A stretch of 45,581 nucleotides of DNA, from positions 1-45,581 of the forward strand of contig DATLHE010000178.1 of NCBI GenBank assembly GCA_035540335.1, read 5' to 3'. The DNA comes from Thermomicrobiales bacterium. GTDB taxonomy: Bacteria > Chloroflexota > Chloroflexia > Thermomicrobiales > UBA6265. The notes under the pieces were generated by a model. The model was given only the letters and a program-made list of their open reading frames with translations, did no database searches and was not told where the DNA came from. A program made the position numbers and the translations under genes. Positions 9,550 to 42,290 of the stretch are shown here, piece by piece (position 1 is the first letter of the stretch; the number at the start of each line of letters is the position of its first letter).

Positions 9550-9714
9550 GGACGACGTCGACCCTCTCCAAACAGGAAACCGGCAGGCGAATCGCGCCCG
9601 CCGCACGCGCACAGGGTAGCCGAGATGCGCCGGTCGATCATCAAATTGCATCCCGGCGTCATGTCGTTCACCATTTCACCATACGTCAGCGAGCGGACAA
9701 GACGATTCGAAGGG

Positions 9715-15960: not shown

Positions 15961-16060
15961 TGATGGCCGTGGACTCCCTCGTACAACCGGCCCCGCAGCG
16001 GCAGGGCCGACCGTACGGCTGGTATGGCAGCCTGTTCGACAACAACGATGGACACCGCGC
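15961..16060. repeat. Repeat modules inside the mraY-murD spacer
   Basis: GTACAACCGGCC (compare 11691-11702). GCAGGGCCGACCGTACG (compare the same 17-mer near 42085-42101). TGGCAGCCTG at 16025-16034 matches the TGGCAGCCTT 10-mer at 9/10 positions. Confidence 0.6.
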
Positions 16061-17461
16061 ATGACTGATCGACTGGCTGGAACGCGATACACCGTCATGG
16101 GCCTCGGCGTCCTCGGCGGCGGGGTGGGGGTGGCCCACTACCTCGCCACCCACGGCGCGGTGGTGACGGTGACCGACATACGCGACGCGGCGCAGCTGCG
16201 GACCTCGATGGACGCGCTGGCCGGGCTGCCGATCACCTACCACCTCGGCGCGCACGACGCGGCCGACTTCACCCGCGGAAACGCCGACGTCATCGTTCGC
16301 AACCCGGGCGTGCCGCGCCGCTCCCCGTATCTCCAGATAGCCCGCGAGGCCGGGCTGGCGATCGAGATGGAGATGTCGCTCTTCTTCCGCGCCTGCGAGG
16401 CGCCGATCCTCGGCGTCACCGGCACGAAGGGCAAGACGAGCGTCTCGACACTCTGCGGCGGCATCCTGAACGCATGGAAGCCCGAGACCGTGCTGGCCGG
16501 CAACATGGGGATCTCGGCGCTGGCGGCGGTCGACGACATCGAAGGCGGGACGCCGGTCGTGATCGAGCTCTCCAGCTGGCAGCTGGAGGCCCTGGACGAG
16601 CACCGGCTCGGGCCGAAGGTCGCCGTCATCACCAACGTCTCGCCGGATCACCTCGACCAGTACGACGGCTTCGACGACTACGCCGCGACCAAGCGCACGA
16701 TCGGCCACCATGTGGGGCCAGAGGGCATCGTCGTCTACAACGCCGACGACCCCGAGTGCGTGAAGATCGTCGCCGAGACGCCGGGGCGGGCGATCCCGTT
16801 CGGGCTGCACGACACCGGCGGCGATGGCGCCTGGCTCGTCGGCGAGGAGCTCGTCTGGCGCGCGTCGGGGCGTGAGGAGCGCCTGCCGCGACCCACCCAG
16901 CTTCAGCTCGGCGGCGACCACGGCGCGGCCAACGCGCTCGCGGCGTTTGCCGCGACGCGCGCCTATGGCGCGCCGCTGGAGGCCGTCCGGCACGGCCTGG
17001 AGGTATTCGCCGGCGTGCCGAACCGCATGGAGGAGGTCGCGATCGTCGACGGCGTGCTCTTCGTCAACGACACCTCCGCCACGGCGCCGGCGGCGGCGAT
17101 CGCCGGGCTCCGCGTGCTGCACGAGCGGGCGAACACGGTGTACCTGATCGCCGGCGGGGCCGACAAGAAGACCGACCTGACGCCGTTCGCCGACGAGATC
17201 GCCCGCCTGCGGCCGCGGGTGCTGCTACTCGACGGCACCGCGACGTCGCGCCTGCGCGAGCTGCTGGACGAGCATGGCGTGCCCTACGCGGGCCCGTTCA
17301 CAAGCATGGCGGAAGTCGTCCGCGCCGCCGCGACGGAGGCCCGAGACGGCGATGTCGTGACGCTGACGCCCGGCTGCGCCAGCTTCGGCCTTTTTCGCAA
17401 TGAGTTCGACCGGGGCGAGCAGTTCCGCGCCGCCGTCCATGCCCTTCGCATCGCCGTCTGA
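16061..17461 (+). CDS. murD: UDP-N-acetylmuramoylalanine--D-glutamate ligase MurD
   Basis: N-terminal Rossmann segment VMGLGVLGGGVGVAHYL, P-loop GVTGTKGKTSV, and a Mur ligase C-terminal domain. Confidence 0.9.
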   Translation: MTDRLAGTRYTVMGLGVLGGGVGVAHYLATHGAVVTVTDIRDAAQLRTSMDALAGLPITYHLGAHDAADFTRGNADVIVRNPGVPRRSPYLQIAREAGLAIEMEMSLFFRACEAPILGVTGTKGKTSVSTLCGGILNAWKPETVLAGNMGISALAAVDDIEGGTPVVIELSSWQLEALDEHRLGPKVAVITNVSPDHLDQYDGFDDYAATKRTIGHHVGPEGIVVYNADDPECVKIVAETPGRAIPFGLHDTGGDGAWLVGEELVWRASGREERLPRPTQLQLGGDHGAANALAAFAATRAYGAPLEAVRHGLEVFAGVPNRMEEVAIVDGVLFVNDTSATAPAAAIAGLRVLHERANTVYLIAGGADKKTDLTPFADEIARLRPRVLLLDGTATSRLRELLDEHGVPYAGPFTSMAEVVRAAATEARDGDVVTLTPGCASFGLFRNEFDRGEQFRAAVHALRIAV

Positions 17462-17491
17462 CGTTCAACCACCACCCAGGGGACCGTTCGC

Positions 17492-19885: not shown

Positions 19886-19908
19886 ACGACAGGATGGAAG
19901 ATGGGCCT

Positions 19909-21021
19909 ATGACAGCCGGCAATGGACACAATGGCAGGATCCGCGTCGCGGTGGTCTTCGGCGGACGCTCCGACGAGCACGACGTCTCGCTGCGCTCGGC
20001 GCAGACGATCATGAACGCGCTCCACCCGGACCGCTACGAGGTCGTCCCGCTCGGGATCACGCGCGAGGGGCGCTGGATCGCCGGCGGCGACCCGATGGCG
20101 GCGCTGGTCGCCGAGTCGCCGATGTTCCACCTGCAATCCGGCGAGCAGACGTCGCCGAAGCCGGCCAACGGCTCGCTCGTGCCCGCGAACGGCGCCGACA
20201 CGCTGATGCCGGGCGGCGTGACCGACACCGTCGACGTCGTCTTCCCCGCGCTGCATGGGCCGATGGGCGAGGACGGCACGCTGCAGGGCATGCTGCGGAT
20301 GGCGGGCGTGCCGTTCGTCGGCAGCGGCGTGCTCGGCTCGGCGGCGGCCATGGACAAGGCGATGACCAAGGTCGTCATCGACAAGGCGGGCATCCCGCAG
20401 CTGCCGTGGATGCTGGTGATGCGGCGCGACTGGGAGCGCGACGCCAAGGCGGTCGAGCAGAAGATCGCCGGGGAGATCGGCTTTCCGTGCTTCACGAAGC
20501 CGGCGAACCTCGGCTCCAGCGTCGGCATCTCGAAGGTGCACGACGCGAGCGAGCTGCACGAGGCGCTGGTGCAGGCGGCGCACTTCGACCGCCGGATCGT
20601 CGTCGAGAAGGGCGTCTCGGGGCGCGAGCTGGAGATCTCGGTGCTCGGCAATGACGACCCGGTCGTCTCCATCGCCGGCGAGATCCGGCCGCGAGGCGAG
20701 TTCTACGACTACAACGCCAAGTACATCGATGACACCGCCGAGCTGATCATCCCGGCCGACATCCCGTCCGAGGCGCAGGCCCAGCTGGAGGAGTACGCCG
20801 CGCGGGCGTTCCGCGCGCTGGACCTGGCGGGGCTGGCGCGGGTCGACTTCTTCCTGGAGCACGGCACCGGGCAAATCTACCTCAACGAGGTGAACACGCT
20901 GCCCGGGTTCACCTCGATCAGCATGTACCCGATGCTGTGGGAGGCGAGTGGGGTGCCGCTGACGGAGCTGGTGGACCGGCTGGTCCGCCTCGCGATCGAG
21001 CGGCACGAGGAGCTGGGGTAG
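19909..21021 (+). CDS. ddl: D-alanine--D-alanine ligase
   Basis: RVAVVFGGRSDEHDVSLRSA.., ..FPALHGPMGEDGTLQGML.. and ..EVNTLPGFTSISMYP are Ddl ATP-grasp motifs. I prefer ATG 19909 because GGAAGA lies 7 nt upstream. ATG 19894 is the alternative. Confidence 0.9.
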   Translation: MTAGNGHNGRIRVAVVFGGRSDEHDVSLRSAQTIMNALHPDRYEVVPLGITREGRWIAGGDPMAALVAESPMFHLQSGEQTSPKPANGSLVPANGADTLMPGGVTDTVDVVFPALHGPMGEDGTLQGMLRMAGVPFVGSGVLGSAAAMDKAMTKVVIDKAGIPQLPWMLVMRRDWERDAKAVEQKIAGEIGFPCFTKPANLGSSVGISKVHDASELHEALVQAAHFDRRIVVEKGVSGRELEISVLGNDDPVVSIAGEIRPRGEFYDYNAKYIDDTAELIIPADIPSEAQAQLEEYAARAFRALDLAGLARVDFFLEHGTGQIYLNEVNTLPGFTSISMYPMLWEASGVPLTELVDRLVRLAIERHEELG

Positions 21022-21039
21022 GGGCGGCTGATCCGGCGC

Positions 21040-21250
21040 AGCGGGAGGACACAAGGACCTCCCCTACGCCGGGTTTGGCAGCCCGAAGGCGCACACCCTT
21101 CGGGGGGGCGCGGCTACGACGGGGAGCCTCGCCCGCAAGATGGTAGGGGCGACGCTACGTGGTCGCCCGATGGCCCACAGGAACAGCCTGCGGAGCGGGA
21201 ACCACCCAACCGTCATCCCGAGCGAGCCCCCTGGGATGACGGGTAGTGTG
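21040..21250. repeat. Interspersed repeat modules downstream of ddl
   Basis: ACAAG-loop hairpin at 21043-21063. GCGCACACCCTTCGGGGGGGCGCGGCTACG at 21089-21118. Hairpin GGGCGAC-gctacgt-GGTCGCCC at about 21145-21167. GTCATCCCGAGCGAGC..GGGATGAC at about 21216-21241. Confidence 0.75.
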
Positions 21251-21389
21251 TCGGCCAATGGACTTCGCGTGCGTCCCTGCCTCGCCCGAGATAACGGAGC
21301 CGCTGGCGGGGTGAACGTGCCCGCGTCCGTTCGCGGGTGATGGACGGGCCGGATGTGTTGTCGCATGCGGCGAAGGGCGCGGGGACGCA

Positions 21390-21398
21390 TGCTATACT
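21390..21398 (+). promoter_or_regulatory. Candidate extended -10 promoter element upstream of ftsZ
   Basis: TGCTATACT fits TGnTATAAT-type extended -10 elements. It sits in the only AT-enriched stretch of the ddl-ftsZ gap. Further -10-like hexamers are TACAAT (~21465) and CATACT (~21492). I see no convincing -35. Confidence 0.3.
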
Positions 21399-21515
21399 TT
21401 GCGACGATCGCCTGGTGTTGTGCATACGATGTCTCGCGTTTGCCCGTGCATCGCGCCTTGTGGTCGTACAATACGCACACGGGATGTGCGATCATACTGT
21501 CAAGTCAACGGCCCA

Positions 21516-21579
21516 GAACGAGAGCGGCACACCTTCGTGTGTCCGGCGAGGAACCGATCGGGTTCCCGGGCTCTCGTTC
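21516..21579 (+). ncRNA. Candidate structured RNA element in the ftsZ leader (closing stem plus two hairpins)
   Basis: GAACGAGAGC (21516-21525) is perfectly complementary to GCTCTCGTTC (21570-21579). Between them lie GGCACAC-cttc-GTGTGTCC (one bulge) and GGAACC-gatcg-GGTTCC. I recognise no family. Confidence 0.3.
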
Positions 21580-21823
21580 GATTCCTGGAGTTAACGGTTG
21601 GCTGTCCCCGCACCGGGGGATCGCGTGACAGGCACGTCGATCAGCCGGGTGATGAAAGCCACGATGAAACATGGATGGTGAAGGGACAATGCAATCCCGA
21701 GGTCAGAATCCGGCACGCGGTCAGCAACAAGTACGGGTTCACGGCGCGGCCGGCCAGCCGCAGGTTCCGAATGAGCGCTCCGCCGCCCCCGAGCAGCCGG
21801 AGAAACCCGCGTCGCGCTGGAGC

Positions 21824-22957
21824 ATGTCGGATCATCTGGCCAACGCGTTCGCCCGGATCAAGGTGATCGGCGTCGGCGGCGCCGGCGGCAACGCGATCAA
21901 TCGCATGGTCAGCTCCGGCGTCGACGGCATCGAGTTCGTCGCAGTCAACACCGACGCCCAAGCGCTGATGACGAGCGAGGCGACGATCGCGATCCGCATC
22001 GGCGACAAGCTCACCAAGGGTCTCGGCGCCGGCGGGCGTCCCGAGATCGGCGAGCGCGCCGCCGAGGAGAGCTCCGAGAGCCTCTCCGAGGTGATGCGCG
22101 ACTGCGACATGATCTTCATCGCCGCGGGCATGGGCGGCGGCACCGGAACCGGCGCCTCGCCGACGATCGCACGGCTCGCGAAGCAGGCCGGCGCGCTGAC
22201 GGTCGCCGTCGTCACCAAGCCGTTCGAGTTCGAGGGCGGGCGTCGTCGCCGGGCGGCGGAAGAGGGCGTCGCGGCGCTCAGGGAAGTCGTCGACGCGCTG
22301 ATCACGATCCCGAACGAGCGCCTGCTGCACATGGTCGACCCGAAGACGACGGTCACCGAGGCGTTCCAGATCGCGGACGACGTGCTGCGGCAGGGTATCG
22401 CAGGCATCTCCGACCTGATCACGAAGCCGGGCGTCATCAACCTCGACTTCGCGGACGTCAAGACGATCATGCAGGACGCCGGGTCGGCGCTGATGGCGAT
22501 CGGCTACGGCGAGGGGTCGGACCGCTGCGTCAACGCCGCCCGCGAGGCGATCGAGAGCCCGCTGCTGGAGATGAACATCCAGGGCGCCAAGGGCGTGCTC
22601 TACAACATCAGCGGCGGCAGCAACCTGACGCTGTTCGAGACCAGCGAGGCGGCGGAGGTCATCCGCGCCGCGGCCGACGACGACGCCGAAATCATCTACG
22701 GTACGTCGATCGACGAGTCGCTGGGCGACGCGGTGATGATCACCCTGATCGCGACCGGCTTCGACGAGCGCCCGGCGCTCGACGCGTTCTCGTTCGGCAG
22801 CACGTCGCGTGAGCCGTCGCGGGCGAGCGAGGATCGCTACACGCGGTCGACCTCCTCGCGCGAGCCTGAGCCGCGCGGCGGTGGCGGGCAGCCGGTCTAC
22901 CCGGACGACGACTGGGAGTCGGAGTCGTCGATCATCAGGTTCCTGCGCGAGCGCTAG
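21824..22957 (+). CDS. ftsZ: Cell division GTPase FtsZ
   Basis: IKVIGVGGAGGNAINRM and the tubulin signature GMGGGTGTGASP. The C-terminal peptide is SSIIRFLRER. I chose the start MSDHLANAFARIKVIGVGG (21824) for its typical N-terminal length. In-frame ATGs at 21671 and 21689 (the latter with a GAAGGGA RBS) remain possible. Confidence 0.9.
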   Translation: MSDHLANAFARIKVIGVGGAGGNAINRMVSSGVDGIEFVAVNTDAQALMTSEATIAIRIGDKLTKGLGAGGRPEIGERAAEESSESLSEVMRDCDMIFIAAGMGGGTGTGASPTIARLAKQAGALTVAVVTKPFEFEGGRRRRAAEEGVAALREVVDALITIPNERLLHMVDPKTTVTEAFQIADDVLRQGIAGISDLITKPGVINLDFADVKTIMQDAGSALMAIGYGEGSDRCVNAAREAIESPLLEMNIQGAKGVLYNISGGSNLTLFETSEAAEVIRAAADDDAEIIYGTSIDESLGDAVMITLIATGFDERPALDAFSFGSTSREPSRASEDRYTRSTSSREPEPRGGGGQPVYPDDDWESESSIIRFLRER

Positions 22958-22985
22958 GCGCCTACCAAACACGAAAGAACCAGTG

Positions 22986-23016
22986 CGGTGCCCGGACGTT
23001 CGACGTGCGGGCACCG
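22986..23016 (+). terminator. Weak hairpin after ftsZ
   Basis: CGGTGCCCG - 13 nt - CGGGCACCG (9-bp stem) lies 29 nt after the stop. No U-tract follows, and nrdR starts 36 nt later. Confidence 0.25.
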
Positions 23017-23051
23017 TCGTATCATGGCCGTGAGCCGGGGGAGCAGGTGTC

Positions 23052-23513
23052 GTGCGTTGTCCATACTGCAAGGCCAAGGATTCACGCGTCATCGACAGTC
23101 GCGACATCAGCGGGGGAGACTCCATCCGCCGCCGTCGCGAGTGCGTCGAGTGCAAGCGGCGGTTCACGACCTATGAGCGGGTGGAGACGGCGCCGCTGAT
23201 CGTCGTCAAGAAGGACGGCCGGCGCGAGGAGTTCAATCCGGAGAAGCTGCGCCAGAAGCTGCGGGTGGCGCTGACGAAGCGCCCGATCGGGGAGGACGCG
23301 CTGGAGGCGCTGATCAACCGCATCGAGAGCGAGCTGATGGCGCTGGGGACGAAGGAGGTCTCCTCGCACGCGATCGGCGAGATGGCGCTGCGCGAGCTCA
23401 AGGCGCTCGACCACGTTGCTTATATCCGGTTCGCCTCGGTCTACCGCCAGTTCGCGGACATCGACGAGCTGCGGCGCGAGGTCGAGGGGCTCTCCGCGCC
23501 GGGCGATCGATGA
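23052..23513 (+). CDS. nrdR: Transcriptional repressor NrdR
   Basis: GTG start preceded by GGGGGAG. MRCPYCKAKDSRVIDSR..RRRRECVECKRRFTTYE is the zinc ribbon, and an ATP-cone follows. Confidence 0.92.
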   Translation: MRCPYCKAKDSRVIDSRDISGGDSIRRRRECVECKRRFTTYERVETAPLIVVKKDGRREEFNPEKLRQKLRVALTKRPIGEDALEALINRIESELMALGTKEVSSHAIGEMALRELKALDHVAYIRFASVYRQFADIDELRREVEGLSAPGDR

Positions 23514-24171: not shown

Positions 24172-26238
24172 TCAGTCTCCTGTGCCTTCGGCGAAGAGGA
24201 TGTAGCCGGGGTCCTGGCCGGGGACGGTGTTTGGCACCTCGGTCCAGTCACCGTCAGGCGCGGAGAGGTCGAGCAGCCAGCGGGTCCGTGATTCGTCGCC
24301 CTGCGATGAGAGCGAGAGGAACGAGCCGTCCCGCGAGAGCACCACGGTCGCGGCGCTCCGTGCCGCGTTTGGTGGCGTGATCTGCTCGATGACCGGTGGT
24401 CCGTTCCGCGTCTGAACCACGGAAATGTGCTGCGAGCCAATCGTGTAGGCCATCGTCGTGCCGTCGCCAGAGGCTGTGATGGAGTTCTTGCCGATCGCCA
24501 TGGACCCAGCGTTGTTGGGGTTCGGAACGTCCTCCAGCTCATTGACGAGGTCGCCCGAGACCGGATCATGGACGCGAATCGTGACCGTGCCTCCATCCAT
24601 ACCTATGTAGTCGTACATGAAGAGGGCGTTCGTGCTGGTGATCCACGAGATGCTGTTGCCGAGCTCCATGCCCTCGAACTCATGTGTTTCGCCCGTGGCG
24701 ACGTTCACCGAGAAGACCTTGTCCACGTCCGTCGAGGCCGGGTCGGCGTCGGAGCCGTGATCCGCGCGGATGGTCGCGACCACGACATCAGGATCCGGCG
24801 TCGTGCGAAGTCCGGCGATCGTCTGATCTGTGTCGAGCACTGTCCCCGGCTCGGCGTTGAGCTCGGCTTTCAGCACCTGCACGTCGTTGCCCGCCGCGTA
24901 GCTGATCGCGCTGCCCTCCTGCACCCAGGCCATGAAGGGCTGCCAGGCGTCCGGGATGCTGGGCGACTGGGCGACCGCCGCGCCATCGGCTGTGTCGACA
25001 ATGCCGTAGGTGATCGAATCGCCCTGGTTGCCGATTGTCAGGGCGGCGTGGCTGCCGTCCGGTGAGAGGGCCATCGCGGTGACGAGGGGCAGGTCCTCGC
25101 TGAGGGTGATCCAGTGCGTGTCGTCGAACGAGTCGCCGAGCAGCAGCAGGTCGCCAGGCGCGCCGGTGTTGGTCTTGAGCCGGCCCCCATACACGGTTTG
25201 GGCGAAGCCGAGCGCCACGGTGCCGTCGTCGGCCGGGGTAGAGAGCATCACCGCCACATCGGCTGGCGCCGGGATGCCGGCCATTGCGCTCAGCGGGCGC
25301 GACTCCATCGTCCTCAAGTCGAGGACCGCAAGCTCGGAGGGATCATCCGCCAGCGGGCCGACGACCCACGGGCTGCCGTCCACGGAGTAGGTCATCACCG
25401 ACCGCGCCTCCGAGTCGTCGGTGGGTTTCCCGAACATCACCATGTCGCCGCTCGCGACGCTGACGTAGCCGCTCAGCAGGTTCGCAAGGTCATCCTCGCC
25501 CGGTGGCAAGACTGCGAGGCTCACCGTTCCGGGCCAGGGACCGGGTGAGGCCGAGATGACGTTGGACGAAAGCACCCAGTTCGGCTCGCCCGCACACGTG
25601 AGCTTGAGATCACCACGAGGATCGATGCCGGTCGTGTCGTAGCGGGAGATGATCAATGACGTCGTCTCGACCGGCGAGTTTGGGTCCGCGACATCGGGAA
25701 TGATCGGGATGTCGCCGCTGAGATCGCAGGCGGTGATTGGCGCGGGGGTGGCGGCGGGCGCCGTGATCGTCTCCCGCGTCGAGGGCTGCATCGCGACGCC
25801 GGGGATGGTCGCCGGGTCGTCGTTCCCGCCGCCTCCGGTGCCGAAATCGCCGTCGAAGACGCGCCAGATGCCGAAACCGGCGAGGATGACCAGTGCCGCG
25901 AGGGCGATGTTGGCCGCGTGCGACCACGCCATACGCCGGAAGAGCGGCGTGGATCGGGGTTTCGCGGCAGTGCCTCCCCTGTGTGGCGCGGGCCAGGGGT
26001 TCGGGATCGCGTGTGCGTCGGGTGTTGGGGCAGAAGTCATGATGTCCTCCCAGATCTGTGATTTGAGGTCGAGAGGCATCGTGGGGAGATCGTCTGGCCC
26101 GCGCAGCGCGCGCTGGACGCAAACGAAGGTCGCTTCGAGCTCGTTTCGCGGTGCGCGATCGACTCCGTCGGCGATCTGCTCGCCGAAGTCCATGAACGCA
26201 TGCTCGTCCGAATCGAACTGTCGTCTCTGGTTGCTCAT
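24172..26238 (-). CDS. Putative anti-sigma factor: single-pass membrane protein with an extracytoplasmic PD40/TolB-like beta-propeller region
   Basis: The start MSNQRRQFDSDEHAF.. (ATG 26238) overlaps the sigma-factor stop as ATGA. It has an ~85-aa cytoplasmic head and the TM AANIALAALVILAGFGIWRVF. The ~570-aa outside region has recurring S(P/R/V)DGS motifs (SVDGSPWVV, SPDGSHAAL, SRDGSFLSL). No HxxxCxxC zinc motif is present. Confidence 0.7.
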   Translation of the reverse strand: MSNQRRQFDSDEHAFMDFGEQIADGVDRAPRNELEATFVCVQRALRGPDDLPTMPLDLKSQIWEDIMTSAPTPDAHAIPNPWPAPHRGGTAAKPRSTPLFRRMAWSHAANIALAALVILAGFGIWRVFDGDFGTGGGGNDDPATIPGVAMQPSTRETITAPAATPAPITACDLSGDIPIIPDVADPNSPVETTSLIISRYDTTGIDPRGDLKLTCAGEPNWVLSSNVISASPGPWPGTVSLAVLPPGEDDLANLLSGYVSVASGDMVMFGKPTDDSEARSVMTYSVDGSPWVVGPLADDPSELAVLDLRTMESRPLSAMAGIPAPADVAVMLSTPADDGTVALGFAQTVYGGRLKTNTGAPGDLLLLGDSFDDTHWITLSEDLPLVTAMALSPDGSHAALTIGNQGDSITYGIVDTADGAAVAQSPSIPDAWQPFMAWVQEGSAISYAAGNDVQVLKAELNAEPGTVLDTDQTIAGLRTTPDPDVVVATIRADHGSDADPASTDVDKVFSVNVATGETHEFEGMELGNSISWITSTNALFMYDYIGMDGGTVTIRVHDPVSGDLVNELEDVPNPNNAGSMAIGKNSITASGDGTTMAYTIGSQHISVVQTRNGPPVIEQITPPNAARSAATVVLSRDGSFLSLSSQGDESRTRWLLDLSAPDGDWTEVPNTVPGQDPGYILFAEGTGD

Positions 26239-26915
26239 GCTGACGTGTCCTGGTCGTCGTGCGGGTCGCCAAGCAGCTCGCGCAGGCGGACGTAGGCGCG
26301 GAAGTGCGCGGTGCGGACGGCGCCGATGCTCATCTGCAGGAGGCGGGCGATCTCGGCGCCCTTCGCGCCGATAGCGCACAGCTCCACGATCTGCCGTTGC
26401 TTCTCCGGCAGCTGGGCCAGCGCCCGCTCGATGCGGCGTCGCTCGTCGGCCGCGATCGCGGCGTCCTCGGGCGACCGGCTGCGGTCCACCAGCCACGGCT
26501 GCGCGGCCGGGGCGTCGAGCGCGGTCGTCGGCCGGTGGCGGCGCGTCTCGTCGATGACGACGTTGCGGGCGATCGTCATCAGCCAGGCGCGGAACGTCGT
26601 GCCGTCGCCGCGGCGCTCCGGCCGGAACCGGGGTAGGGCGGCGAGCGCCCGGGAGAACGTCTGGCTGGTGGCGTCCGCCGCGCGCTCGGGGTCGCCGAGC
26701 CGGCTCAGGGCGTATTTCCAGACGAGGTCGGCGTAGACCTCGTAGAGCGGGGCGAAGGCGCGTGGGTCCCTGCGCGCCCGCTCGACGTGGACGAGCTCCC
26801 ACTCCCACGTCGCGCCGTCATCCGTCCGATGGGCGGCGCGATCCGGTGGCGATGTGCGTTTGTGACTCTCTCCCGAGAAGGAGGCTGTCCGCGCGGACAG
26901 CTCGATCTTCCCCAC
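26235..26915 (-). CDS. ECF-type RNA polymerase sigma factor (sigma-70 family, regions 2 and 4)
   Basis: Region 2 is FAPLYEVYADLVWKYALSRLGDPERAADATSQTF. Region 4 is LPEKQRQIVELCAIGAKGAEIARLLQMSIGAVRTAHFRAYVRLRE. No in-frame ATG lies upstream of region 2 before the trxA overlap. GTG at 26915 (VGKIELS..), preceded by AGGAGAG 11 nt upstream, is the best start. Confidence 0.8.
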   Translation of the reverse strand: MGKIELSARTASFSGESHKRTSPPDRAAHRTDDGATWEWELVHVERARRDPRAFAPLYEVYADLVWKYALSRLGDPERAADATSQTFSRALAALPRFRPERRGDGTTFRAWLMTIARNVVIDETRRHRPTTALDAPAAQPWLVDRSRSPEDAAIAADERRRIERALAQLPEKQRQIVELCAIGAKGAEIARLLQMSIGAVRTAHFRAYVRLRELLGDPHDDQDTSA

Positions 26916-28929: not shown

Positions 28930-29185
28930 TGCCGCGCACCCGCAGGGTGTGCGCCCTGGGACCGCCACCGGCCGCGGCTGCGGGCGGTGGCCGACCTCTC
29001 CGCCGAAGATGGCCACATCCCCTCTACATCCATAATGTGGCCACCTGGCAGCCTTCCATAACGACGCGAAGGCTGCCACATACCCTGGCGCCCTTGGCAG
29101 CCTTGAAGTGCCCGCCATATCAAGGAAAACGGCCAAGGCTGCCAACGGCCACGTTGTTTACGTTGGCAGCCTTCCATAACGCGTT
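28930..29185. repeat. Repeat cluster with five alternating copies of TGGCAGCCTT
   Basis: Inverted GCGCAC hairpin module at 28932-28954. GGCCGCGGCTGCGGGCGGTGGCCGACCT at about 28968-28995 is the reverse complement of about 42038-42065. A ~48-nt module at 29013-29060 is the reverse complement of about 41843-41900. Perfect TGGCAGCCTT or its complement lies at 29046, 29069, 29095, 29135 and 29164 (orientations + - + - +). The 17-mer GGCAGCCTTCCATAACG lies at 29047-29063 and 29165-29181. Confidence 0.9.
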
Positions 29186-29235
29186 GAGAGTATGGCGGGA
29201 AGACCCCGGACACGAGGTCCGGGGCTACGGAGCGG

Positions 29236-30366
29236 TCATCCTGCCGGTTGGCATCCCGAGCTGAGGAAGAGCAGGAGCTCGACCTGGCCGCTGGGTGTCG
29301 CACCCGGCAGGGCGACAGAGTCGAAGGCGAGCTTCTGATCGCCGCCATTCGCGGGTTCAGGCAGGAGCTGCGGGAAGTCCTGCTCGATCATGGCGCCGAT
29401 GCGTTTGGAGAGATTCGCACCGGTAGGAACGTCGGGCGCATTCGATGAGATCAGCACGAAGCCGATGCGGCAGTTTTGACCGTTGATGTAGGGTGCCAAG
29501 GCATCATCCAGTGCCTGCTGCGCATCATTGAGCGCGCCCTCATCGCCGGCCAATACGCCTTGCAGGTCGACCTGTAAGGTCTCGGTCACGGCGTCCGGGT
29601 TGAGCGAGTTCAGCTGCACCTGCTGCTGTGCCTGCGAAAGCTGGCTCTGCGCCGCGGCGGACGTCGCCTCGGCGGACTCCACGCGCGACGAGGACGCCGC
29701 GGCGGTGGCTTGCGCGGATTCGAGGTTGGACTGCGCGGCGGCGGATTGCGCCTCGCTGGTCGCCAGCGCGTCGGCATTGCTCTGGAGCTGATCCTGGAGC
29801 GCGACCATCGTGCCCTGCGCATTGACGCCGCTCGCGGCGTTCTCGGTCGCTTGCGCCTGGAGCCGGGCCTGCTCGGTACCCTGTGCCTGGATCTGCTCGG
29901 CGACCGTCGTCGCCTGCGCCACGCTGGTGGCGAGCTGGTTGTTCAGCGCTTGCTGATCGAGCTGCCGGGATGCCTGCTCGGTGGAGAGCGCCTCGATTGT
30001 CGCCTGGGCGACGACGGCGTCCTCGGTCGCGCGAGCGTCCTCGGTCGCCCGCTCGCTTTCGCTCAGGGCGGCGCGGGTCGACTCGGCCTCGGCCGTCTGC
30101 TGGGCGCTGGCCTCCTGTGCGGCGATCTGCTCGCGCAGCGCCTCGGCGGTCTGCTCGCTGGTGGTCTGCTGCATGGCGAGATCGGATTCGGCCGTCGCGA
30201 GGTAGTCCGGCGCGGGCGTCGGGGTGGGCGTGGGCGGCGGTGCGCCGACGGTGTTCGCCACGGCGAAGAGCATCGCGAGACCGAGCAGGAGGTCGGCAAA
30301 GAGCCAGCCACCGAGCACGATCATGTCCCGTCTGGTGCGCCTGCGGCGCTTGTATGGCTGCATCAA
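29236..30366 (-). CDS. Hypothetical single-pass membrane protein: MotB/PomB-like Asp-containing TM segment, Pro/Thr linker, ~250-aa Ala/Gln/Thr/Glu-rich coiled coil, ~110-aa C-terminal globular domain
   Basis: MMQPYKRRRRTRRDMIVLGGWLFADLLLGLAMLFAVANTVGAPPPTPTPTPAP.. The low-complexity helical region (..AQQTAEAESTRAALSESERATEDARATEDAVVAQATIEAL..) follows. The C-terminal domain contains ..CRIGFVLISSNAPDVPTGANLSKRIGAMIEQDF..GQVELLLFLSS. Codon usage resembles the neighbouring genes. Confidence 0.7.
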   Translation of the reverse strand: MMQPYKRRRRTRRDMIVLGGWLFADLLLGLAMLFAVANTVGAPPPTPTPTPAPDYLATAESDLAMQQTTSEQTAEALREQIAAQEASAQQTAEAESTRAALSESERATEDARATEDAVVAQATIEALSTEQASRQLDQQALNNQLATSVAQATTVAEQIQAQGTEQARLQAQATENAASGVNAQGTMVALQDQLQSNADALATSEAQSAAAQSNLESAQATAAASSSRVESAEATSAAAQSQLSQAQQQVQLNSLNPDAVTETLQVDLQGVLAGDEGALNDAQQALDDALAPYINGQNCRIGFVLISSNAPDVPTGANLSKRIGAMIEQDFPQLLPEPANGGDQKLAFDSVALPGATPSGQVELLLFLSSGCQPAG

Positions 30367-30416
30367 GGTCTCCGTCGATCGGGCAAGGCGAGTGTGTCAG
30401 GTTGCATGGTTGCGCG

Positions 30417-32003
30417 CTAGCTCCGGGACGAGCGGTTCCAGCGCGATCCTGCTTCGCCCTCCGACGGGGTCCGCGCGAGCTCGGCGCGCAGGGCGGTGGT
30501 GAACGCCTGCTGCAGATTCTCCGTGCTCGGCGTCTGCTGCACGAGCCGGTTGAGCGTGTTGGCGAGGCCGTCCAGCCGCTGCACGAGGTGCTGGAAATCC
30601 TGGTTCACCTCGCGTTGGCGCTGGGCGGTCGTGAGGCCGACATTGCCGAGCTCGCGGACGGTCTGCGAGATGTCCTTGGCGATGTCCGACTGCTGCGCGA
30701 GCAGGCCGTTCAGCGCGTTCGCCTGCTGCCCGGTCTGAACGCTGAGGCGCTCGAACTCCTCGCGGATCTTGGACAGGCCACCGCCGATGTCGTTGAGCGT
30801 GCGGGCCGTCGCATGCGAGCTGGCGGTGCTCGACCGGAGCGATTCGGAGAGCTGGCCGCTGGTGTCCGTCTGGGTCGTCAGTGCTTGCTCGACGCGCGCC
30901 TGGCTCTCCGCCACTTGCTGCGCGATCTGGCTGATGCCACGGATGGCGTCGACCGCGACGCGGCTCGCCTGGGCGGCATTCTCGGCGCCGGTGATCGCCT
31001 TGTCGGCGGTTTCGGCGAGGTTGTTCGCGGCGGTGGACATCTGGCGGGCGACCGCCTGGTCGCTCTGGATGGACGATGACGTCATCCGCTCCAGGTTCGA
31101 GACGGCGGTGAGGAGCGTGCGCTGCTGGTCGCCAGCGGCACCGACCTCCCCGGTGAGATCCTCCAGCGCGCGCTCGAGTCCGGACGAGACCTGGCGCAGA
31201 TCGACGAGGAGACGGTGCATCTCCTCGGCGCCGGCGCGCATGCCCGAGGCGAAGACGCCGAAGTCGGCGAACTCCTTCTCACGGCGCGTCGCCAGGTGAT
31301 CGAGGCGGTCGTGCTCGACCTGGAGCTGGTTGAGGAGCGACTGGCTGCTGCGCTCGAAGCGGTCGGCGAGGCGTTCGACGCTGTCGGCCAGCTGAAGCGG
31401 CCGCGACGACTTGTCGGTCGCGAGAAGAACGGTCGCCTCGGCGAGGGCGTTATCGAAATCGGCCTGGAACTCGGACGCGGTGTCGGCGATCAGGTCCTCC
31501 TGCCGCTCGCGCCGGCCGTGGGCGTAGAAGGTGAGCAGGATGATGACGATGATGACGACGGCATCGATGAGCGCCACGGTCGAGAACGTCGGCGACAGCC
31601 AGCTCGACTCGCCGCCGAAGCCCCGCTGCCAGAGCAGGAGGAACGGCTGGCCGGCCTGGTCGGGGTTCGCGGCGATGTAGCGCTCGTATGCGGTGGCGGC
31701 CTCGCCGAGCGCCGCCCACGTCAGCAGGATCGGCACGAGGACGAGGACGTTGCGGACCTTGTCCGCGATCTCGATCGTATTTGGCGCGTAGCCGCCTTCG
31801 CGGCGAACCGCGTAGGAGTGCGAGAGCCGGTCGGTGTTGAAGGCCCGGCTCAGGTCGACATCCGACCAGCGCATGCGGCCGGACTCGGTCGTCAACGACG
31901 TGGCGAGCTCGCGGAGACGCCGCGCGGACCGTGGGTCGACCTCGTTCAACGAGGCGGCGATGCCATCGATCTGGTCTGCTACTTCCGGCGCGGGGGCTGA
32001 CAT
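30417..32003 (-). CDS. Hypothetical membrane protein: ~110-aa cytoplasmic head, 2-TM hairpin, ~330-aa C-terminal coiled-coil tail
   Basis: I prefer the start MSAPAPEVADQ.. (ATG 32003) over the track start at 32120. The TMs are VRNVLVLVPILLTWAALGEAATAY and FSTVALIDAVVIIVIILLTFYAH; the second contains an Asp and is followed by GRRERQ. The long heptad-like tail (..LERALEDLTGEVGAAGDQQRTLLTAVSNLERM..QIAQQVAESQARVEQAL..) is predicted cytoplasmic by the positive-inside rule. Confidence 0.7.
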   Translation of the reverse strand: MSAPAPEVADQIDGIAASLNEVDPRSARRLRELATSLTTESGRMRWSDVDLSRAFNTDRLSHSYAVRREGGYAPNTIEIADKVRNVLVLVPILLTWAALGEAATAYERYIAANPDQAGQPFLLLWQRGFGGESSWLSPTFSTVALIDAVVIIVIILLTFYAHGRRERQEDLIADTASEFQADFDNALAEATVLLATDKSSRPLQLADSVERLADRFERSSQSLLNQLQVEHDRLDHLATRREKEFADFGVFASGMRAGAEEMHRLLVDLRQVSSGLERALEDLTGEVGAAGDQQRTLLTAVSNLERMTSSSIQSDQAVARQMSTAANNLAETADKAITGAENAAQASRVAVDAIRGISQIAQQVAESQARVEQALTTQTDTSGQLSESLRSSTASSHATARTLNDIGGGLSKIREEFERLSVQTGQQANALNGLLAQQSDIAKDISQTVRELGNVGLTTAQRQREVNQDFQHLVQRLDGLANTLNRLVQQTPSTENLQQAFTTALRAELARTPSEGEAGSRWNRSSRS

Positions 32004-32265
32004 CCGGTGCGTCGCCTGGGCAGGCGGGCTGAAGTGCTCGCTTGTTGGTCGCGACGTTCCGGGGCGGGTCAGGGAATCGGAAAGGCTGTTCTGGTTCTGT
32101 TTGCGTGATCGCAGCTGCAAAGGCTCGACCCCCTCTGTCGTTACGGTGCCGTCGCCGATCCTTCCCAGTCCACTACAATCATGGCGATTGCAGCATCACT
32201 CTACCATCTCTCGCAGGTCCCATGACTGCTCAGGCGAGCCTGCAGGGAGGCGACAAGGGGCGGAC

Positions 32266-34566
32266 GTGGACGGCCTGACACTCTTTCAAAACGCACTGAA
32301 CCGCACGTACGTTCCGGAACTCGTTCGGATGCATGCTCGCCCGGAGCTCGATCATCAGCGGCGGCCGGTGGTGATCCAGGGGGAGCATGCGCTGGTTGCG
32401 CGCATTCTTCGCACGGACGGTGCCCGCCTCGCGCTGCGCGTCGCCGCGTCGCCGGAGACCGGCAGGGACTGGCACCTGCGCTACGCCGCGATGCGCACCG
32501 ATGTCCCGGACTCTGTGCGCGATTTCCTGCCGCACGCGATCGACGTGGTGCCCAACGGCTTCCGGATCGGCGACGTCCTCCATGAGGCGATCGTCACCGA
32601 GTGGATCGACGGGCCGACCGTCCTGCAGGCCGCCGATCGGGCCGGGCGCGGGGGGAACACCGCCGTGCTGCGGGCGCTCGCCGCCTCGCTGCGCGAACTG
32701 GTGGTCGCCTTCCGGCAGGCGCGGGTCGTCCATGGCGACCTGGCGGCCGACAACCTGATGATGCGGCCGAACGGCGACCTCGTCGCCATCGATCTCGACA
32801 GCATGACGTGGCCCGGCGCTCAGCTCGGCCCGGCCGGCGGTGGCACGCCGGAGTACCGGCATCCGGGCGGCGGGTCCGCCGCGGAGCGCGATGCGTTCGC
32901 GGCGCTGGTGCTCTACACGTCGCTGCGCGTGCTGGCGGACGATCCCGACCTGCGTCGCACCTACGGTGACCCGGTATCGATCCATGGCGGGGCGCTGCTG
33001 TTCTCCGCCTGGGACCTGGCGGATCCGGCGACGTCTCGCGCGTTCGCGGATGCCCGCGAGCGTGTCCCGACGGAGACGCAGACCCTGCTCGACCGCCTGA
33101 GGGACGCCTGCATCGGGCGGCCGGCGCAGGCGGCGGCGATTCTCGGCGAGGTCTTCGCGCTGCCTCGTGCACCTGAACCCGAGGCCCGGGCCGTCGAACA
33201 GACGCAGATGACGACCGCGTGGGACGTGTCGTCGGTCATCGATCGCATCCGGACGCAGTACGGGACCGCGCAGCCGTCCGAGCGCCCGGCCCCGCCTGCG
33301 CGGGGCGATTGGTCGACGTGGGCATCCCCGGACGACCAGCCGGCGCCCGAGCCGCCCGCCACGATGAAGCTTCCGGCCCAGCCGGACCCCACGCGAGGGC
33401 TCGACGAGGATCGCGAGCGGCTGCGGCAGGCGATTGCCGTTGGCGACGAGGCCGAGGTTGTGCGCCTCGCCGCGCGGCTCGGCGACGATCCGGTGGCGCA
33501 GATGTACAAGCTCGATGTCGAACGCGTGTTGGCGGCGGGCTACGAGCAGCGAATCGCACAGGCCGCCAACCGGCGCCAGGACGACCAGGTTCTGGCCCTG
33601 GCGGGGGAGGTGGCGCGCCGGCACCTGCCGGTCAGCGCGGCGACCCGGGGCCACGTCCGCCGGGCGAAGGAGCGGATCTCTGTGCGCGGGCGTTTGGAGG
33701 CGGCACTCGCCGCGGACGATCGCCGCGCGTTGACCGACCTCGCCGTCTCGGGCGAGCTCGTCGTTCTCGGCGACACGGACCGGGCGTCGCTGCAAAAGGT
33801 GCTGCGTGCACTGGAGTGGCCGAGCCTGCAGCGGGCGCTCGCCACCGACGACGACGCGATGATCCTCGAGTGGTTCGACGAGGAGCTCTTCGGCGAGCCG
33901 ACGGCGCTCCCGGAGGACGCGCAGCGCCGGGTGCAGCTCGCCCACGACCGGACGGCGTGGGTGATCGAGGTCCGCGATGCCCTGAAGCGCCGGCGCGTGC
34001 GGGATCTGGCGTCGCTTTTCCTCGGGGCGCCCGAGGGTGGGCCGGAGCGGCTGACGGCGGCGGAGCGGGAGCGCGCCGCGCGGTTGATCGAGCGGCAGGC
34101 CGCGCTCGACGAGCTGCAGCTGGCGATCCGCTCCGGTGATGACAATGCCGTGCTGGCGGCGCTCAACACGATCGAGCGGGTCGGAGCGCGGATCGAGGAC
34201 CGGTTCTCGTGGGGCACGGTGCAGGGGGTTGTCGAACGGGCGTCGCTGATCGAGGACATCGTGGCGGCCGCGACCGCGCGGCCTGTCGACGACCGGCAGC
34301 TGGCGCACCTGCTGCCGGTGGCGAAGACGATGGGCCTGGCGCACGATCCACGGCTGCGCGACGACCTCGCCATCGAGCACCTGGAGCGATTGGTGCTCCG
34401 GGGAGCGGCGGTGCGGCGCATCCGGCGGGCGCTGCGGGAGGACGACGATCACGCCATCCGGCAGGCGGCGTACCCCGACGTCGCGGACGCGCAGGACGCG
34501 CTGACGGAGGCGGAACGGATGCGGATCGCGGAGGCCGTGGCCCGCTCCGGGCGGGCGGCGTCGTAG
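32266..34566 (+). CDS. Hypothetical protein with a degenerate protein-kinase-like N-terminal domain and a ~450-aa C-terminal alpha-helical repeat region
   Basis: GTG 32266 is preceded by GGGAGG and AAGGGG. Kinase-like landmarks are VTEWIDGPTV (hinge), HGDLAADNLMM (catalytic loop), VAIDLDSM (in place of DFG) and GTPEYRHPGG (APE-like). I see no Gly-rich loop, and LALRV stands where the VAIK lysine is expected. Five or more A-[IL]-x3-D-[DE]-x2-[ILV] repeats follow. ATG 32329 is an alternative start. Confidence 0.7.
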   Translation: MDGLTLFQNALNRTYVPELVRMHARPELDHQRRPVVIQGEHALVARILRTDGARLALRVAASPETGRDWHLRYAAMRTDVPDSVRDFLPHAIDVVPNGFRIGDVLHEAIVTEWIDGPTVLQAADRAGRGGNTAVLRALAASLRELVVAFRQARVVHGDLAADNLMMRPNGDLVAIDLDSMTWPGAQLGPAGGGTPEYRHPGGGSAAERDAFAALVLYTSLRVLADDPDLRRTYGDPVSIHGGALLFSAWDLADPATSRAFADARERVPTETQTLLDRLRDACIGRPAQAAAILGEVFALPRAPEPEARAVEQTQMTTAWDVSSVIDRIRTQYGTAQPSERPAPPARGDWSTWASPDDQPAPEPPATMKLPAQPDPTRGLDEDRERLRQAIAVGDEAEVVRLAARLGDDPVAQMYKLDVERVLAAGYEQRIAQAANRRQDDQVLALAGEVARRHLPVSAATRGHVRRAKERISVRGRLEAALAADDRRALTDLAVSGELVVLGDTDRASLQKVLRALEWPSLQRALATDDDAMILEWFDEELFGEPTALPEDAQRRVQLAHDRTAWVIEVRDALKRRRVRDLASLFLGAPEGGPERLTAAERERAARLIERQAALDELQLAIRSGDDNAVLAALNTIERVGARIEDRFSWGTVQGVVERASLIEDIVAAATARPVDDRQLAHLLPVAKTMGLAHDPRLRDDLAIEHLERLVLRGAAVRRIRRALREDDDHAIRQAAYPDVADAQDALTEAERMRIAEAVARSGRAAS

Positions 34567-34589: not shown

Positions 34590-34610
34590 GGGCCGCCACA
34601 AGGGCGGCCC
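34590..34610. terminator. ACAAG-loop hairpin between convergent genes (terminator/REP-like)
   Basis: GGGCCGCC-acaag-GGCGGCCC forms an 8-bp stem. It lies 24 nt after the stop at 34566 and 15 nt beyond the stop of the minus-strand oxidoreductase. No U-tract. Confidence 0.4.
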
Positions 34611-41596: not shown

Positions 41597-42290
41597 TGTT
41601 ACGGAAGGCTGCCAACGCATTTAACCTGGCCGGTGGCAGCCTTGGCGGATTTGGCTGATTTTGCGGGGATTTCAAGGCTGCCAAGGATGATCGGGAACCT
41701 GGCAGCCTTCGTGGTGTGTGGTGGGAGGCCAGTGAACGCGCCTTTCGAGTTGACGGAGCGGGAGGACATTGACCGCGCGCTCGGGGTCTGACCCTGGAGG
41801 CGCTGGGCGCGGTCAAGTCGTCCCCTACGGGGGGCGAGCGAGGGAAGGCTGCCACGTGGCCACGTAACGGGTAGAGGGGAATGTTGGCCACCTTCGATGA
41901 ATGAGGTGGCGCTACGCGCCGCGACGGTCGGGGGTGGGGCCGCACCGGTGTACGCCGGCGGGTGGCGAACGTCGCTTCGCGTGGGGTTCATCGCTTCGCT
42001 CTGAATGAGATGTTTTGGTGCGGGGTAGGGCGTGCCAAGGTCGGCCACCGCCCGCAGCCGCGGCCCGCAGGGGCGCCCACAGGGGCAGGGCCGACCGTAC
42101 GACGGTTGGCGGGAGACGGTGCACACTCTGCGGGGTGCGCGGCTACGGCCATGGGGCGGACATAGAGGGCTCGCTCCGATTCTCGCCTTAGGCTCGGCCG
42201 GGTCCGCCCGTATGACGGCGAGCGTCGGGCCAGAGGCCGGTCATGGGCCGGCCGTACGGAAGGACGGGAAGTCGCGGGGGGGCGGACTTG
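41597..42290. repeat. Largest mosaic repeat cluster of the window (between convergent genes)
   Basis: TGGCAGCCTT or its complement lies at 41605 (-), 41634 (+), 41674 (-), 41700 (+) and 41845 (-). 41597-41712 is homologous to 161-290. About 41843-41900 is the reverse complement of 29013-29060. The CGCTTCGCG..CTGAATGAG module is at 41971-42012. About 42038-42065 is the reverse complement of 28968-28995. The GCACAC hairpin is at 42119-42147. The 60-nt module at 42155-42214 resembles 451-510. Confidence 0.9.

Follow-up and report, generated by a model that had tools for sequence, protein, structure and literature searches.

The A/B gene pair of Thermomicrobiales may encode an ion-coupled, stator-type membrane complex with a probable pseudokinase as its cytoplasmic partner. 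The pair lies in a 45,581-nucleotide stretch of a Thermomicrobiales bacterium genome (GenBank assembly GCA_035540335.1, contig DATLHE010000178.1; the whole stretch, about 69% G+C, is referred to here as the window), where A and B face a third gene, K, across a divergent spacer. We put the probability at roughly 0.4 that A and B form a complex of the kind represented by ExbB-ExbD, MotA-MotB, ZorA-ZorB and GldL-GldM, with K acting as the cytoplasmic partner. This reading is more than an analogy because an aspartate in the membrane helix of B stands in register with that of known stator subunits, because this helix is conserved across phyla and because the membrane hairpin of A carries near-invariant polar and helix-breaking residues, which we count as support. 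The tight coupling of an A gene followed by a B gene and the precedents of GldLM and ZorAB add to it.

A, B and K are real genes, as indicated by their homologs, their G+C content at third codon positions (GC3) and the same arrangement across 82 related loci. Database searches returned 456 relatives of A and 181 of B at E <= 1e-3, and both B and the open reading frame (ORF) containing K have GC3 values of 0.85-0.87. The gene coordinates, the 50-nt gap between A and the B gene downstream of it on the same minus strand, and the 262-nt spacer towards K are as first described (Table 1). Ortholog starts agree with the called starts of A and K, while orthologs of B begin at the second codon, making the ATG at 30363 the probable true start of B. 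Scanning one genome per species yielded 80 loci, all from metagenome-assembled genomes of Thermomicrobiales/Sphaerobacteraceae with A identities of 48-76%, and look-ups added two more. The B helix motif is present in 79 of these 82 loci, the kinase-like domain of K in 78 and the C-terminal R domain of K in 70, with all misses accounted for by a contig end or a short flank. In all 79 Thermomicrobiales loci that no contig end truncates, B is the next gene after A, and A, B and K are always linked in order wherever the contig reaches far enough. The original prediction had treated the three genes as one functional module and proposed comparing their neighbourhood across related genomes; the trio is indeed kept in order throughout, and the R domain is found elsewhere as a separate gene next to A (see below). 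Because its neighbours are conserved as well, the trio is a fixed piece of the core chromosome near dcw/ftsZ and not an island. On the B side these neighbours are a family 4 (GT4) glycosyltransferase, thioredoxin, NrdR, FtsZ and dcw genes; next to K come a GFO/IDH/MocA oxidoreductase and a xylose-isomerase-like protein. The flanking sequence retrieved includes FtsZ in 25 loci and NrdR in 29.

Protein B contains a single transmembrane helix (TM) with an invariant aspartate. Eight Arg/Lys residues stand ahead of the TM, which gives the only hydropathy peak of the protein (residues 16-34), reads GGWLFADLLLGLAMLFAV and is followed by a Pro/Thr-rich (PT) linker. Asp25 is located about one third of the way into the helix from the cytoplasmic face. 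The helix (GWLFADLLLGL) including Asp25 is invariant in 83 orthologs, and its motif was found in 86 of 90 loci, the distant loci described below included; a Streptomyces assembly also carries it almost unchanged. Asp25 is present in all distant B proteins seen, even where the accompanying A protein does not carry Asp147. The basic N-terminus, single TM, PT linker and C-terminal domain originally proposed for B were all confirmed, but the accompanying coiled coil of about 250 residues was not. Residues 55-252 contain 26% Ala and 17% Gln with repeated ATxxA motifs and, because they possess no heptad period, represent a low-complexity helical stalk of about 200 residues rather than a demonstrated coiled coil. 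The spacer between helix and C-terminal domain is lineage-specific, consisting of a 200-residue A/Q/T-rich helix with ATxxA motifs in Thermomicrobiales (29611-30204), of many tandem PTPYPTYTPG-like units in one distant locus (L084, 9758-10693) and of a plain PT-rich linker elsewhere; its length seems to be kept rather than its sequence.

The C-terminal domain of B carries two invariant cysteines and therefore suits an extracytoplasmic location. The AlphaFold2 (AF2) model of B has a mean predicted local distance difference test score (pLDDT) of 79. Foldseek searches with the C-terminal domain gave weak matches (best E = 8.5e-3) with the OmpA-like, peptidoglycan-binding domains of SiiA and YfiB among the best, and Rid and chorismate-mutase folds score equally well. 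No sequence relative of the domain is found in Pfam, OmpA included, or in the PDB, and an OmpA-like identity suggested by the model is unproven.

The helix of B shows a weak resemblance to stator B subunits that goes beyond composition. Using the N-terminal profile of B against all PDB sequences, the top match was E. coli ExbD (E = 1.5), with Asp25 of B placed on Asp25 of ExbD. Pairwise profile alignment with hhalign gave a probability of 70% and P = 4.2e-5 for the B N-terminus versus ExbD/TolR and P = 1.6e-3 versus MotB/PomB, compared to P = 3e-3 for the known homologs ExbD/TolR and MotB/PomB aligned to each other as a positive control. None of 150 column shuffles reached the B scores; among shuffles keeping the hydrophobic block, 1/150 reached the ExbD/TolR score and 2/150 the MotB/PomB score. 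HMMER and hhalign both place Asp25 of B in register with ExbD Asp25, and MotB Asp32 is likewise aligned. The likeness of this TM to stator B subunits, first proposed from its motif, thus stands up to profile comparison, if weakly, the ExbD/TolR alignment scoring better than the control. B looks like a remote ExbD/TolR relative and A like a new subunit, the pair appearing stator-like.

Protein A consists of a cytoplasmic head, a membrane hairpin and a long cytoplasmic coiled coil. It contains two hydrophobic segments with hydropathy peaks at about residues 86-104 and 143-161, the second of which is directly followed by HGRRERQED; the head (residues 1-75) and everything past residue 162 are therefore cytoplasmic. 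Hydropathy and the AF2 model both agree with the layout proposed at the outset, including the Asp within TM2. In the model, built from 69 sequences, A is all-helical (mean pLDDT 73), TM2 extends into a long helix, and a short break lies between helices 202-309 and 316-452, so that the coiled coil is predicted to form an antiparallel hairpin. Residues 201-510 represent a true coiled coil as a hydropathy period of 3.5 residues is dominant. Some A homologs (P0252 and P0263) carry an extra hydrophobic helix at their C-termini, and A proteins of Thermomicrobiales share a conserved W-x-R C-terminal end (30417-30440); both would fit a coiled-coil hairpin returning to the membrane. Matches of A and B to SMC, JetC, the ZorA tail and LmuB in Pfam, NCBIfam and PADLOC were rejected as coiled-coil compositional noise.

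The membrane hairpin of A is highly conserved. Among 131 superfamily representatives with full coverage, Pro91 is present in 131, Arg84 and Trp96 in 130 each, Thr95 in 128, Asn85 in 125, and Asp147 and Thr158 in 121 each, with Ser replacing Thr158 in 9 more. Asp147 is invariant across the Thermomicrobiales alignments. A possible covariation of A Asp147 with B Gly29 was rejected, as the A protein of one distant locus (L093) carries Val147 and its B protein keeps FADLLLGL.

Protein K is most likely a pseudokinase, judging from its motifs. The kinase-like fold with degenerate motifs followed by helical repeats that had been read from the sequence was recovered by PADLOC (STK_OB, 1.6e-14), by an ortholog profile matching PknA/PknB in the PDB (2.6e-6) and by an alignment of 32 orthologs. 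The position of the VAIK lysine is occupied by Arg58, an arginine in nearly all aligned orthologs, and the HxD aspartate of the catalytic loop (Asp158) varies between D, N, E and T; an inactive kinase is likely because of these two changes. His156 and Asn163 are the only invariants of the loop, which reads HGDLAADN compared to HRDVKPGN in PknA/PknB, the DFG position reads IDLD, and no Gly-rich GxGxxG loop is present. Hydropathy reveals no hydrophobic segment in K. The repeats of the R domain follow the signature AL-x3-DD-x2-I-x3-[YFW]-[DN]-x2-L-[FLW]; the domain has no Pfam relative, and its profile found nothing significant in the PDB.

A and B belong to a very large superfamily that extends far beyond Thermomicrobiales. 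Searching a profile of the A head and hairpin (residues 8-205) against 1.8 billion cluster representatives (50% identity clusters), we identified 1008 proteins at E <= 1e-3, of which 461 reach E <= 1e-10; the majority span the full profile and are 400-650 aa long. Named members include proteins of Candidatus Chloroploca and Streptomyces alboniger. A search with a diverse A N-terminal alignment gave two matches, one of them a Streptomyces alboniger fragment, and the actinobacterial A was not matched in a plasmid collection. The view that A and B fall into no family that can be named holds insofar as neither has a significant Pfam or NCBIfam match; the families are not, however, small or local. 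A, B and R are absent from Pfam-A (2025), NCBIfam 20, PADLOC 2.0 and the PDB, and literature searches on the motif and on new stator-like families found no description of the A/B pair.

In ten distant loci (L084 to L093), the gene directly after A encodes a B homolog in nine, with the helix L[AGST]GW[LV][FY]ADLLL[GV]L. In these B homologs, a PT-rich linker replaces the helical stalk and is followed by a related C-terminal domain. In L084, A and B overlap by 4 nt. A hidden Markov model of the R domain matches a stand-alone gene immediately preceding A in L083/L084 (2.5e-30), L085 (2.5e-20) and L091 (8.7e-12); in L092 (1.6e-49) the matching gene is the second one upstream of A. Because R is a separate gene beside A in distant loci, the R-A-B module is older than Thermomicrobiales, where R has become fused to the pseudokinase and has moved to the opposite strand. 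The only distant locus without a B gene is L088 (6223-10795), in which an A-like hairpin and coiled coil is fused to an N-terminal TPR region and located after an AAA_16 gene and before an Mrr-type restriction nuclease gene.

The wider A/B family is clearly used in conflict-type neighbourhoods. GAP1 genes stand beside distant A/B pairs in three loci, two of which (L092 and L093) have GAP1-N2 and DO-GTPase2 directly upstream of A; L093 also encodes a NACHT protein after B. A/B is accompanied by CHAT, GrpE, two HSP70 genes, a kinase, PP2C and GAP1 in L090, by TPR-CHAT, PP2C, a K-like kinase and an AAA protein in L091, and by a DUF4062-kinase, a HerA-like ATPase and a kinase in L087. The kinases beside some of the distant pairs look active. 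In L085 (1-10131; Candidatus Chloroploca, SIJK02000002.1), R-A-B is directly preceded by genes for a kinase-like protein of 1045 aa, in which the VAIK lysine is retained, and for a protein exceeding 1875 aa that contains VWA, Tricorn, PD40 and Tubulin_2 (FtsZl1-type) domains. The Tubulin_2 neighbour prompted a comparison with the FtsZl1/VWA 'membrane remodelling' operons (Makarova and Koonin, 2010); a link was set aside, as the Chloroflexus aggregans FtsZl1 operon listed there contains no obvious R-A-B set. A/B may be an unnamed membrane component of GAP1-N2 conflict systems. Distant A/B pairs resemble these systems in their position immediately behind GAP1-N2 and DO-GTPase2 genes or next to HSP70-GrpE, kinase-PP2C and CHAT genes, gene themes that are described, in the consulted portion of Kaur et al., 2020 (PMC7159879), as membrane-proximal GTPase-centric conflict systems. 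The same portion of that paper names neither the A/B pair nor the R domain. The window differs from such systems in containing no GAP1, GTPase, HSP70 or CHAT gene, and GAP1-N2 and DO-GTPase genes are also absent from loci L001 and L002.

The A/B pair shares features with, and differs from, several known stator systems. Similar to ExbB-ExbD and TolQ-TolR, the genes are adjacent with A preceding B, and B resembles ExbD in its basic N-terminus, in a single TM whose Asp occupies the equivalent position (B FADLLLGLAMLF versus ExbD FIDVMLVLLIIF), in its linker and in its small alpha/beta domain. In contrast to ExbB/TolQ, A possesses two TMs instead of three and no sequence or profile similarity, B contains a 200-residue helical stalk, and the A/B locus encodes no TonB- or TolA-like partner. 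We take the hosts of A/B (Chloroflexota and one Actinomycetota assembly) to be monoderm, unlike Exb/Tol hosts. MotA/ExbB proteins have three or four TMs, the last two of which line the B helix with conserved Thr/Pro; A has two TMs only, which carry the near-invariant Pro91, Thr95 and Thr158 as possible counterparts. B shares with MotB/PomB the pattern W-x(1-3)-[FY]-A-D-[LIF]-[LM] with a hydrophobic pattern behind it and an OmpA-like order of C-terminal strands and helices, but its Trp-Asp spacing is two residues shorter, the peptidoglycan-binding Arg is not conserved and neither MotB_plug nor OmpA of Pfam is matched. A is unrelated to MotA, and no flagellar genes are nearby. For K, the N-lobe, catalytic loop and DFG position align with PknA/PknB, from which it differs by the missing catalytic Lys and Gly-rich loop, the variable Asp and the fusion to a novel helical-repeat domain.

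Two further systems provide architectural precedents. ZorA-ZorB likewise combines a gene for a long-coil A protein just before one for an Asp-TM B protein with an extracytoplasmic anchoring domain, and its soluble partners vary. In ZorA5B2, Asp26 of ZorB is in contact with Thr and Ser residues of ZorA, whose long cytoplasmic coiled coil, a parallel bundle of five chains measuring about 70 nm, reaches soluble partners; the TM domain of ZorA is structurally related to other 5:2 motors (PMC11946911). The tail of A is instead a predicted antiparallel hairpin of about 15-20 nm, A has no MotA/ExbB match in Pfam, and the A/B locus is part of the core chromosome and not of an island. PADLOC ZorA matches (best E = 1.7e-4) cover tail positions 481-609 of 699 only, and no ZorB match and no ZorC, ZorD or ZorE genes were found. 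The resemblance to Zorya noted in the original prediction is weakened by these comparisons, as the match is restricted to the coil, the coil is antiparallel in the model and the trio of this genome is not found in a defence island. GldL is reported (Hennell James et al., 2021) to possess only two TMs, the second with an acidic residue, and an extended tail in the cytoplasm, and GldM reportedly has one TM with Arg rather than Asp and a long extracytoplasmic shaft. GldLM is found in Bacteroidota together with type IX secretion system (T9SS) partners. With its two TMs, acidic TM2 residue and cytoplasmic tail, A matches the layout of GldL in GldL-GldM/PorL-PorM, whereas the TM of B carries an Asp and not the Arg of GldM. 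Neither the A nor the B profile has a significant match to any PDB chain, GldLM included. GldLM itself possesses a 5:2 architecture without obvious sequence homology to MotAB, and the cytoplasmic tail of GldL is long (PMC9389320).

In the stator-type reading, several A subunits would be arranged around a B dimer. Asp25 of B would be the proton- or ion-binding residue and the A hairpin the surrounding channel, with Thr158, and Asp147 where present, lining the ion path; Thr158 would be positioned near the level of Asp25 and Asp147 nearer the outer face. Through its stalk and C-terminal domain, B would be anchored in the layer of the cell wall. Ion flow, gated by envelope state, would then make A move relative to B, and the coiled-coil hairpin of A would relay the motion to the K R domain. 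For Thermomicrobiales the outcome would be a housekeeping coupling of envelope state with the cytoplasm; in other lineages the A/B unit may be connected to active kinases, PP2C, HSP70/GrpE, CHAT proteases and GAP1-N2 GTPase systems.

A number of results weigh against this assignment. The A-B contact, stoichiometry and ion conduction are proposals only. The ExbD match of B, with E = 1.5 over about 50 hydrophobic residues, is not significant database-wide, and the ExbD, TolR, MotB and PomB templates used with hhalign were sequences entered by hand. B matches none of Pfam ExbD (PF02472), MotB_plug (PF13677) and OmpA, its N-terminal region remaining empty even at E <= 10, and Ile or Val occupies the position of the canonical Arg of the OmpA LSxxRA motif in its C-terminal domain. 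For A, no relation to MotA, ExbB, TolQ, ZorA or GldL is detectable from sequence comparison. Pfam MotA_ExbB is not matched, hhalign versus ExbB/TolQ yields a probability of 0.1%, and A N-terminal profiles at the order and superfamily level found nothing among PDB sequences. A Foldseek search with the full-length model is dominated by long helical proteins (best E = 0.24), ExbB chains recurring among the top matches at E = 0.3-0.8, none of them significant. The caution originally attached to A, namely two TMs and no visible MotA/ExbB signature, was therefore well placed. In the profile and Foldseek comparisons proposed at that time, A matched no EzrA- or chemoreceptor-type family, and no MotA_ExbB, MotB_plug or OmpA match was obtained either. 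In addition, the coiled coil of A is predicted to be an antiparallel hairpin and not a parallel pentameric tail.

A more far-reaching joint claim, which we regard as possible and rather doubtful, is that A/B represents an unrecognised ion-driven 5:2-type rotary or power-stroke motor family coupling the proton-motive force and the state of the wall to R-domain proteins. Such a motor would combine a minimal two-helix outer subunit unrelated in sequence to MotA/ExbB with an ExbD-like axle and a coiled-coil lever, and would occur in Chloroflexota and at least one Actinomycetota assembly, presumably all single-membrane bacteria. Via its R-domain proteins it would be linked, according to lineage, with pseudokinases, with kinases/PP2C, with HSP70 or with conflict modules of the GAP1-N2 GTPase type.

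The alternative that survives best, itself on the unlikely side, is a passive transmembrane signalling unit or scaffold in which A and B pair via their polar TM residues, Asp25 serves helix packing only, B senses the wall or an extracellular ligand and the coil of A, acting in the manner of a chemoreceptor or a sensor without HAMP, recruits the pseudokinase-R protein, with no ion flow or rotation. A two-TM protein with an antiparallel coil is reminiscent of methyl-accepting chemotaxis proteins, as which several sources label A, and A is without homology to any motor subunit. A pseudokinase is moreover a typical scaffold, and the kinase/PP2C linkage in other lineages would suit signalling. Pfam, however, contains no MCPsignal, HAMP or other sensor domain matching A, and the outer loop of A comprises only about 35 residues. 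Packing would also rarely require an entire B helix, together with five polar or Pro positions in the A hairpin, to stay nearly invariant across phyla, and the Asp of B is in register with the ExbD/TolR Asp at a score above the shuffle controls.

A role as an envelope or cell-division accessory, a housekeeping machine specific to the lineage and serving septation or wall synthesis in a way similar to Tol-Pal or EzrA/DivIVA, would be compatible with both the stator-type and the scaffold reading, and we consider it improbable. The trio occupies a fixed core site in all species whose contigs reach far enough, separated from NrdR-FtsZ-dcw by a few genes only (thioredoxin and GT4; in this window an extracytoplasmic function (ECF) sigma factor and a 688-aa ORF), and TolQR sets a precedent for a stator-type motor in division (PMC12505986). 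This neighbourhood could nevertheless reflect vertical inheritance within one order, distant R-A-B sets adjoin rpoB, metabolic or conflict-system genes and not dcw, and the A, B and K domains match no known divisome or wall-synthesis protein.

A Zorya-like anti-phage or conflict system in this genome, with A/B sensing envelope perturbation by phage and K as effector or adaptor, is highly unlikely because the trio is universal and fixed, no effector gene is present and K is probably inactive: distant A/B pairs do adjoin GAP1-N2/DO-GTPase2, NACHT, CHAT, HerA-like ATPase, Mrr and kinase genes, neighbourhoods that correspond to conflict systems in the consulted portion of PMC7159879, and the top PADLOC match of K is the candidate defence kinase STK_OB, but the trio is single-copy in the loci seen, at one conserved chromosomal site among housekeeping neighbours, no nuclease, protease, GTPase or other effector is nearby, K carries no catalytic Lys, the PADLOC ZorA match is confined to the coiled coil and ZorB to ZorE are not matched.

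The flanks of the trio contain ordinary intergenic features (Table 1). A repeat cluster and a hairpin had been taken to bound the block; both exist (29046-29173 and 34590-34610), and they do not delimit a mobile block. Five copies of the short element TGGCAGCCTT, alternating in orientation, make up each of two intergenic clusters (29046-29173 and 41605-41854), which could form several hairpins. With 15 matches at <=1 mismatch versus 1.5 expected, the element looks like a repetitive extragenic palindromic (REP)-type repeat of the host genome. The hairpin directly 3' of B is a possible terminator that was not called by a scan for U-tract terminators. Neither a sigma-70 consensus promoter nor an Rfam family was matched in the locus, the A/K spacer included.

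Table 1. Features of the A/B/K locus, in window positions.
Feature	Coordinates	Strand	Description and basis
Hairpin 3' of B	29204..29224	-	GC-rich, directly 3' of B stop; CCCCGGAC-acgag-GTCCGGGG; read from sequence
Gene B	29236..30366	-	376 aa; single-pass membrane protein, N-in/C-out; ORF and translation, 181 homologs, AF2 model
B C-terminal alpha/beta domain	29239..29604	-	residues 255-376; beta-alpha-beta-alpha-beta-beta; invariant Cys299 and Cys372; pLDDT ~97
B extracytoplasmic helical stalk	29611..30204	-	residues 55-252; A/Q/S/E/T-rich, ATxxA motifs; AF2 helix, pLDDT 58-81
B transmembrane helix	30247..30321	-	residues 16-40; LGGWLFADLLLGL...; alignments
B Asp25 codon	30292-30294	-	within TM helix
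Gene A	30417..32003	-	528 aa; head, TM hairpin, cytoplasmic coiled coil; homologs, alignments, AF2 model
A cytoplasmic coiled coil	30474..31517	-	residues 163-510; AF2 secondary structure, hydropathy period
A membrane hairpin	31518..31754	-	TM1 ~84-105, outer loop with PFLLLWQRGFGGE, TM2 ~141-162; hydropathy
A Asp147 codon	31563-31565	-	in TM2
A cytoplasmic head	31779..32003	-	residues 1-75; conserved motif RWSDVDLRRAFNTDRL; alignments, pLDDT 83-90
Divergent A/K intergenic region	32004..32265	.	262 nt; promoters presumed
Gene K	32266..34566	+	766 aa; soluble, probable pseudokinase-repeat protein; ORF, ortholog alignment
K kinase-like domain	32365..33075	+	residues ~34-270; PADLOC, PDB profile, column conservation
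K R domain	33421..34563	+	residues ~386-766; ~7 helical repeats of ~48 aa
Hairpin 3' of K	34590..34610	.	GC-rich, between convergent K and GFO/IDH/MocA genes; GGGCCGCC-ACAA-GGGCGGCCC; read from sequence

The dcw cluster of the window spans 13457-23513 and encodes a Mur ligase, MraY, MurD, a MurC-MurB fusion (17492-19885, 797 aa; the same fusion is found in L001), FtsZ (21671-22957) and NrdR (23052-23513). Between this cluster and B, an ECF-type sigma factor gene (26235-26906, minus strand) is followed by the 688-aa ORF, which has no Pfam match and is possibly an anti-sigma factor, the pair spanning 24172-26906; L002 likewise encodes, only a few genes away from B, an ECF sigma factor together with an anti-sigma factor of the zf-HC2 type. 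Further away, an ORF of 1199 aa (7897-11496, plus strand) carries biotin carboxylase and biotinyl domains in addition to some 600 N-terminal residues that match nothing, and looks like an unusually long acyl-CoA carboxylase subunit.

Stator-type motors are best understood in diderm bacteria. To our knowledge, the established ones (Mot, Exb, Tol, Agl, Gld and Zor) were all found via similarity to MotA/ExbB or via the genetics of motility and secretion. The A/B pair is novel in joining a putative ExbD-like ion-binding helix to an unrelated two-helix partner, in a superfamily of about 1000 unannotated 50%-identity clusters. If the stator-type reading is correct, the same mechanical problem would have been solved here either independently or by a very divergent relative of known motors. 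The pair would also provide a concrete membrane sensor or energiser for the membrane-proximal GAP1-N2, HSP70 and kinase systems of multicellular bacteria, and a core trio of Thermomicrobiales genes close to dcw would gain a function.

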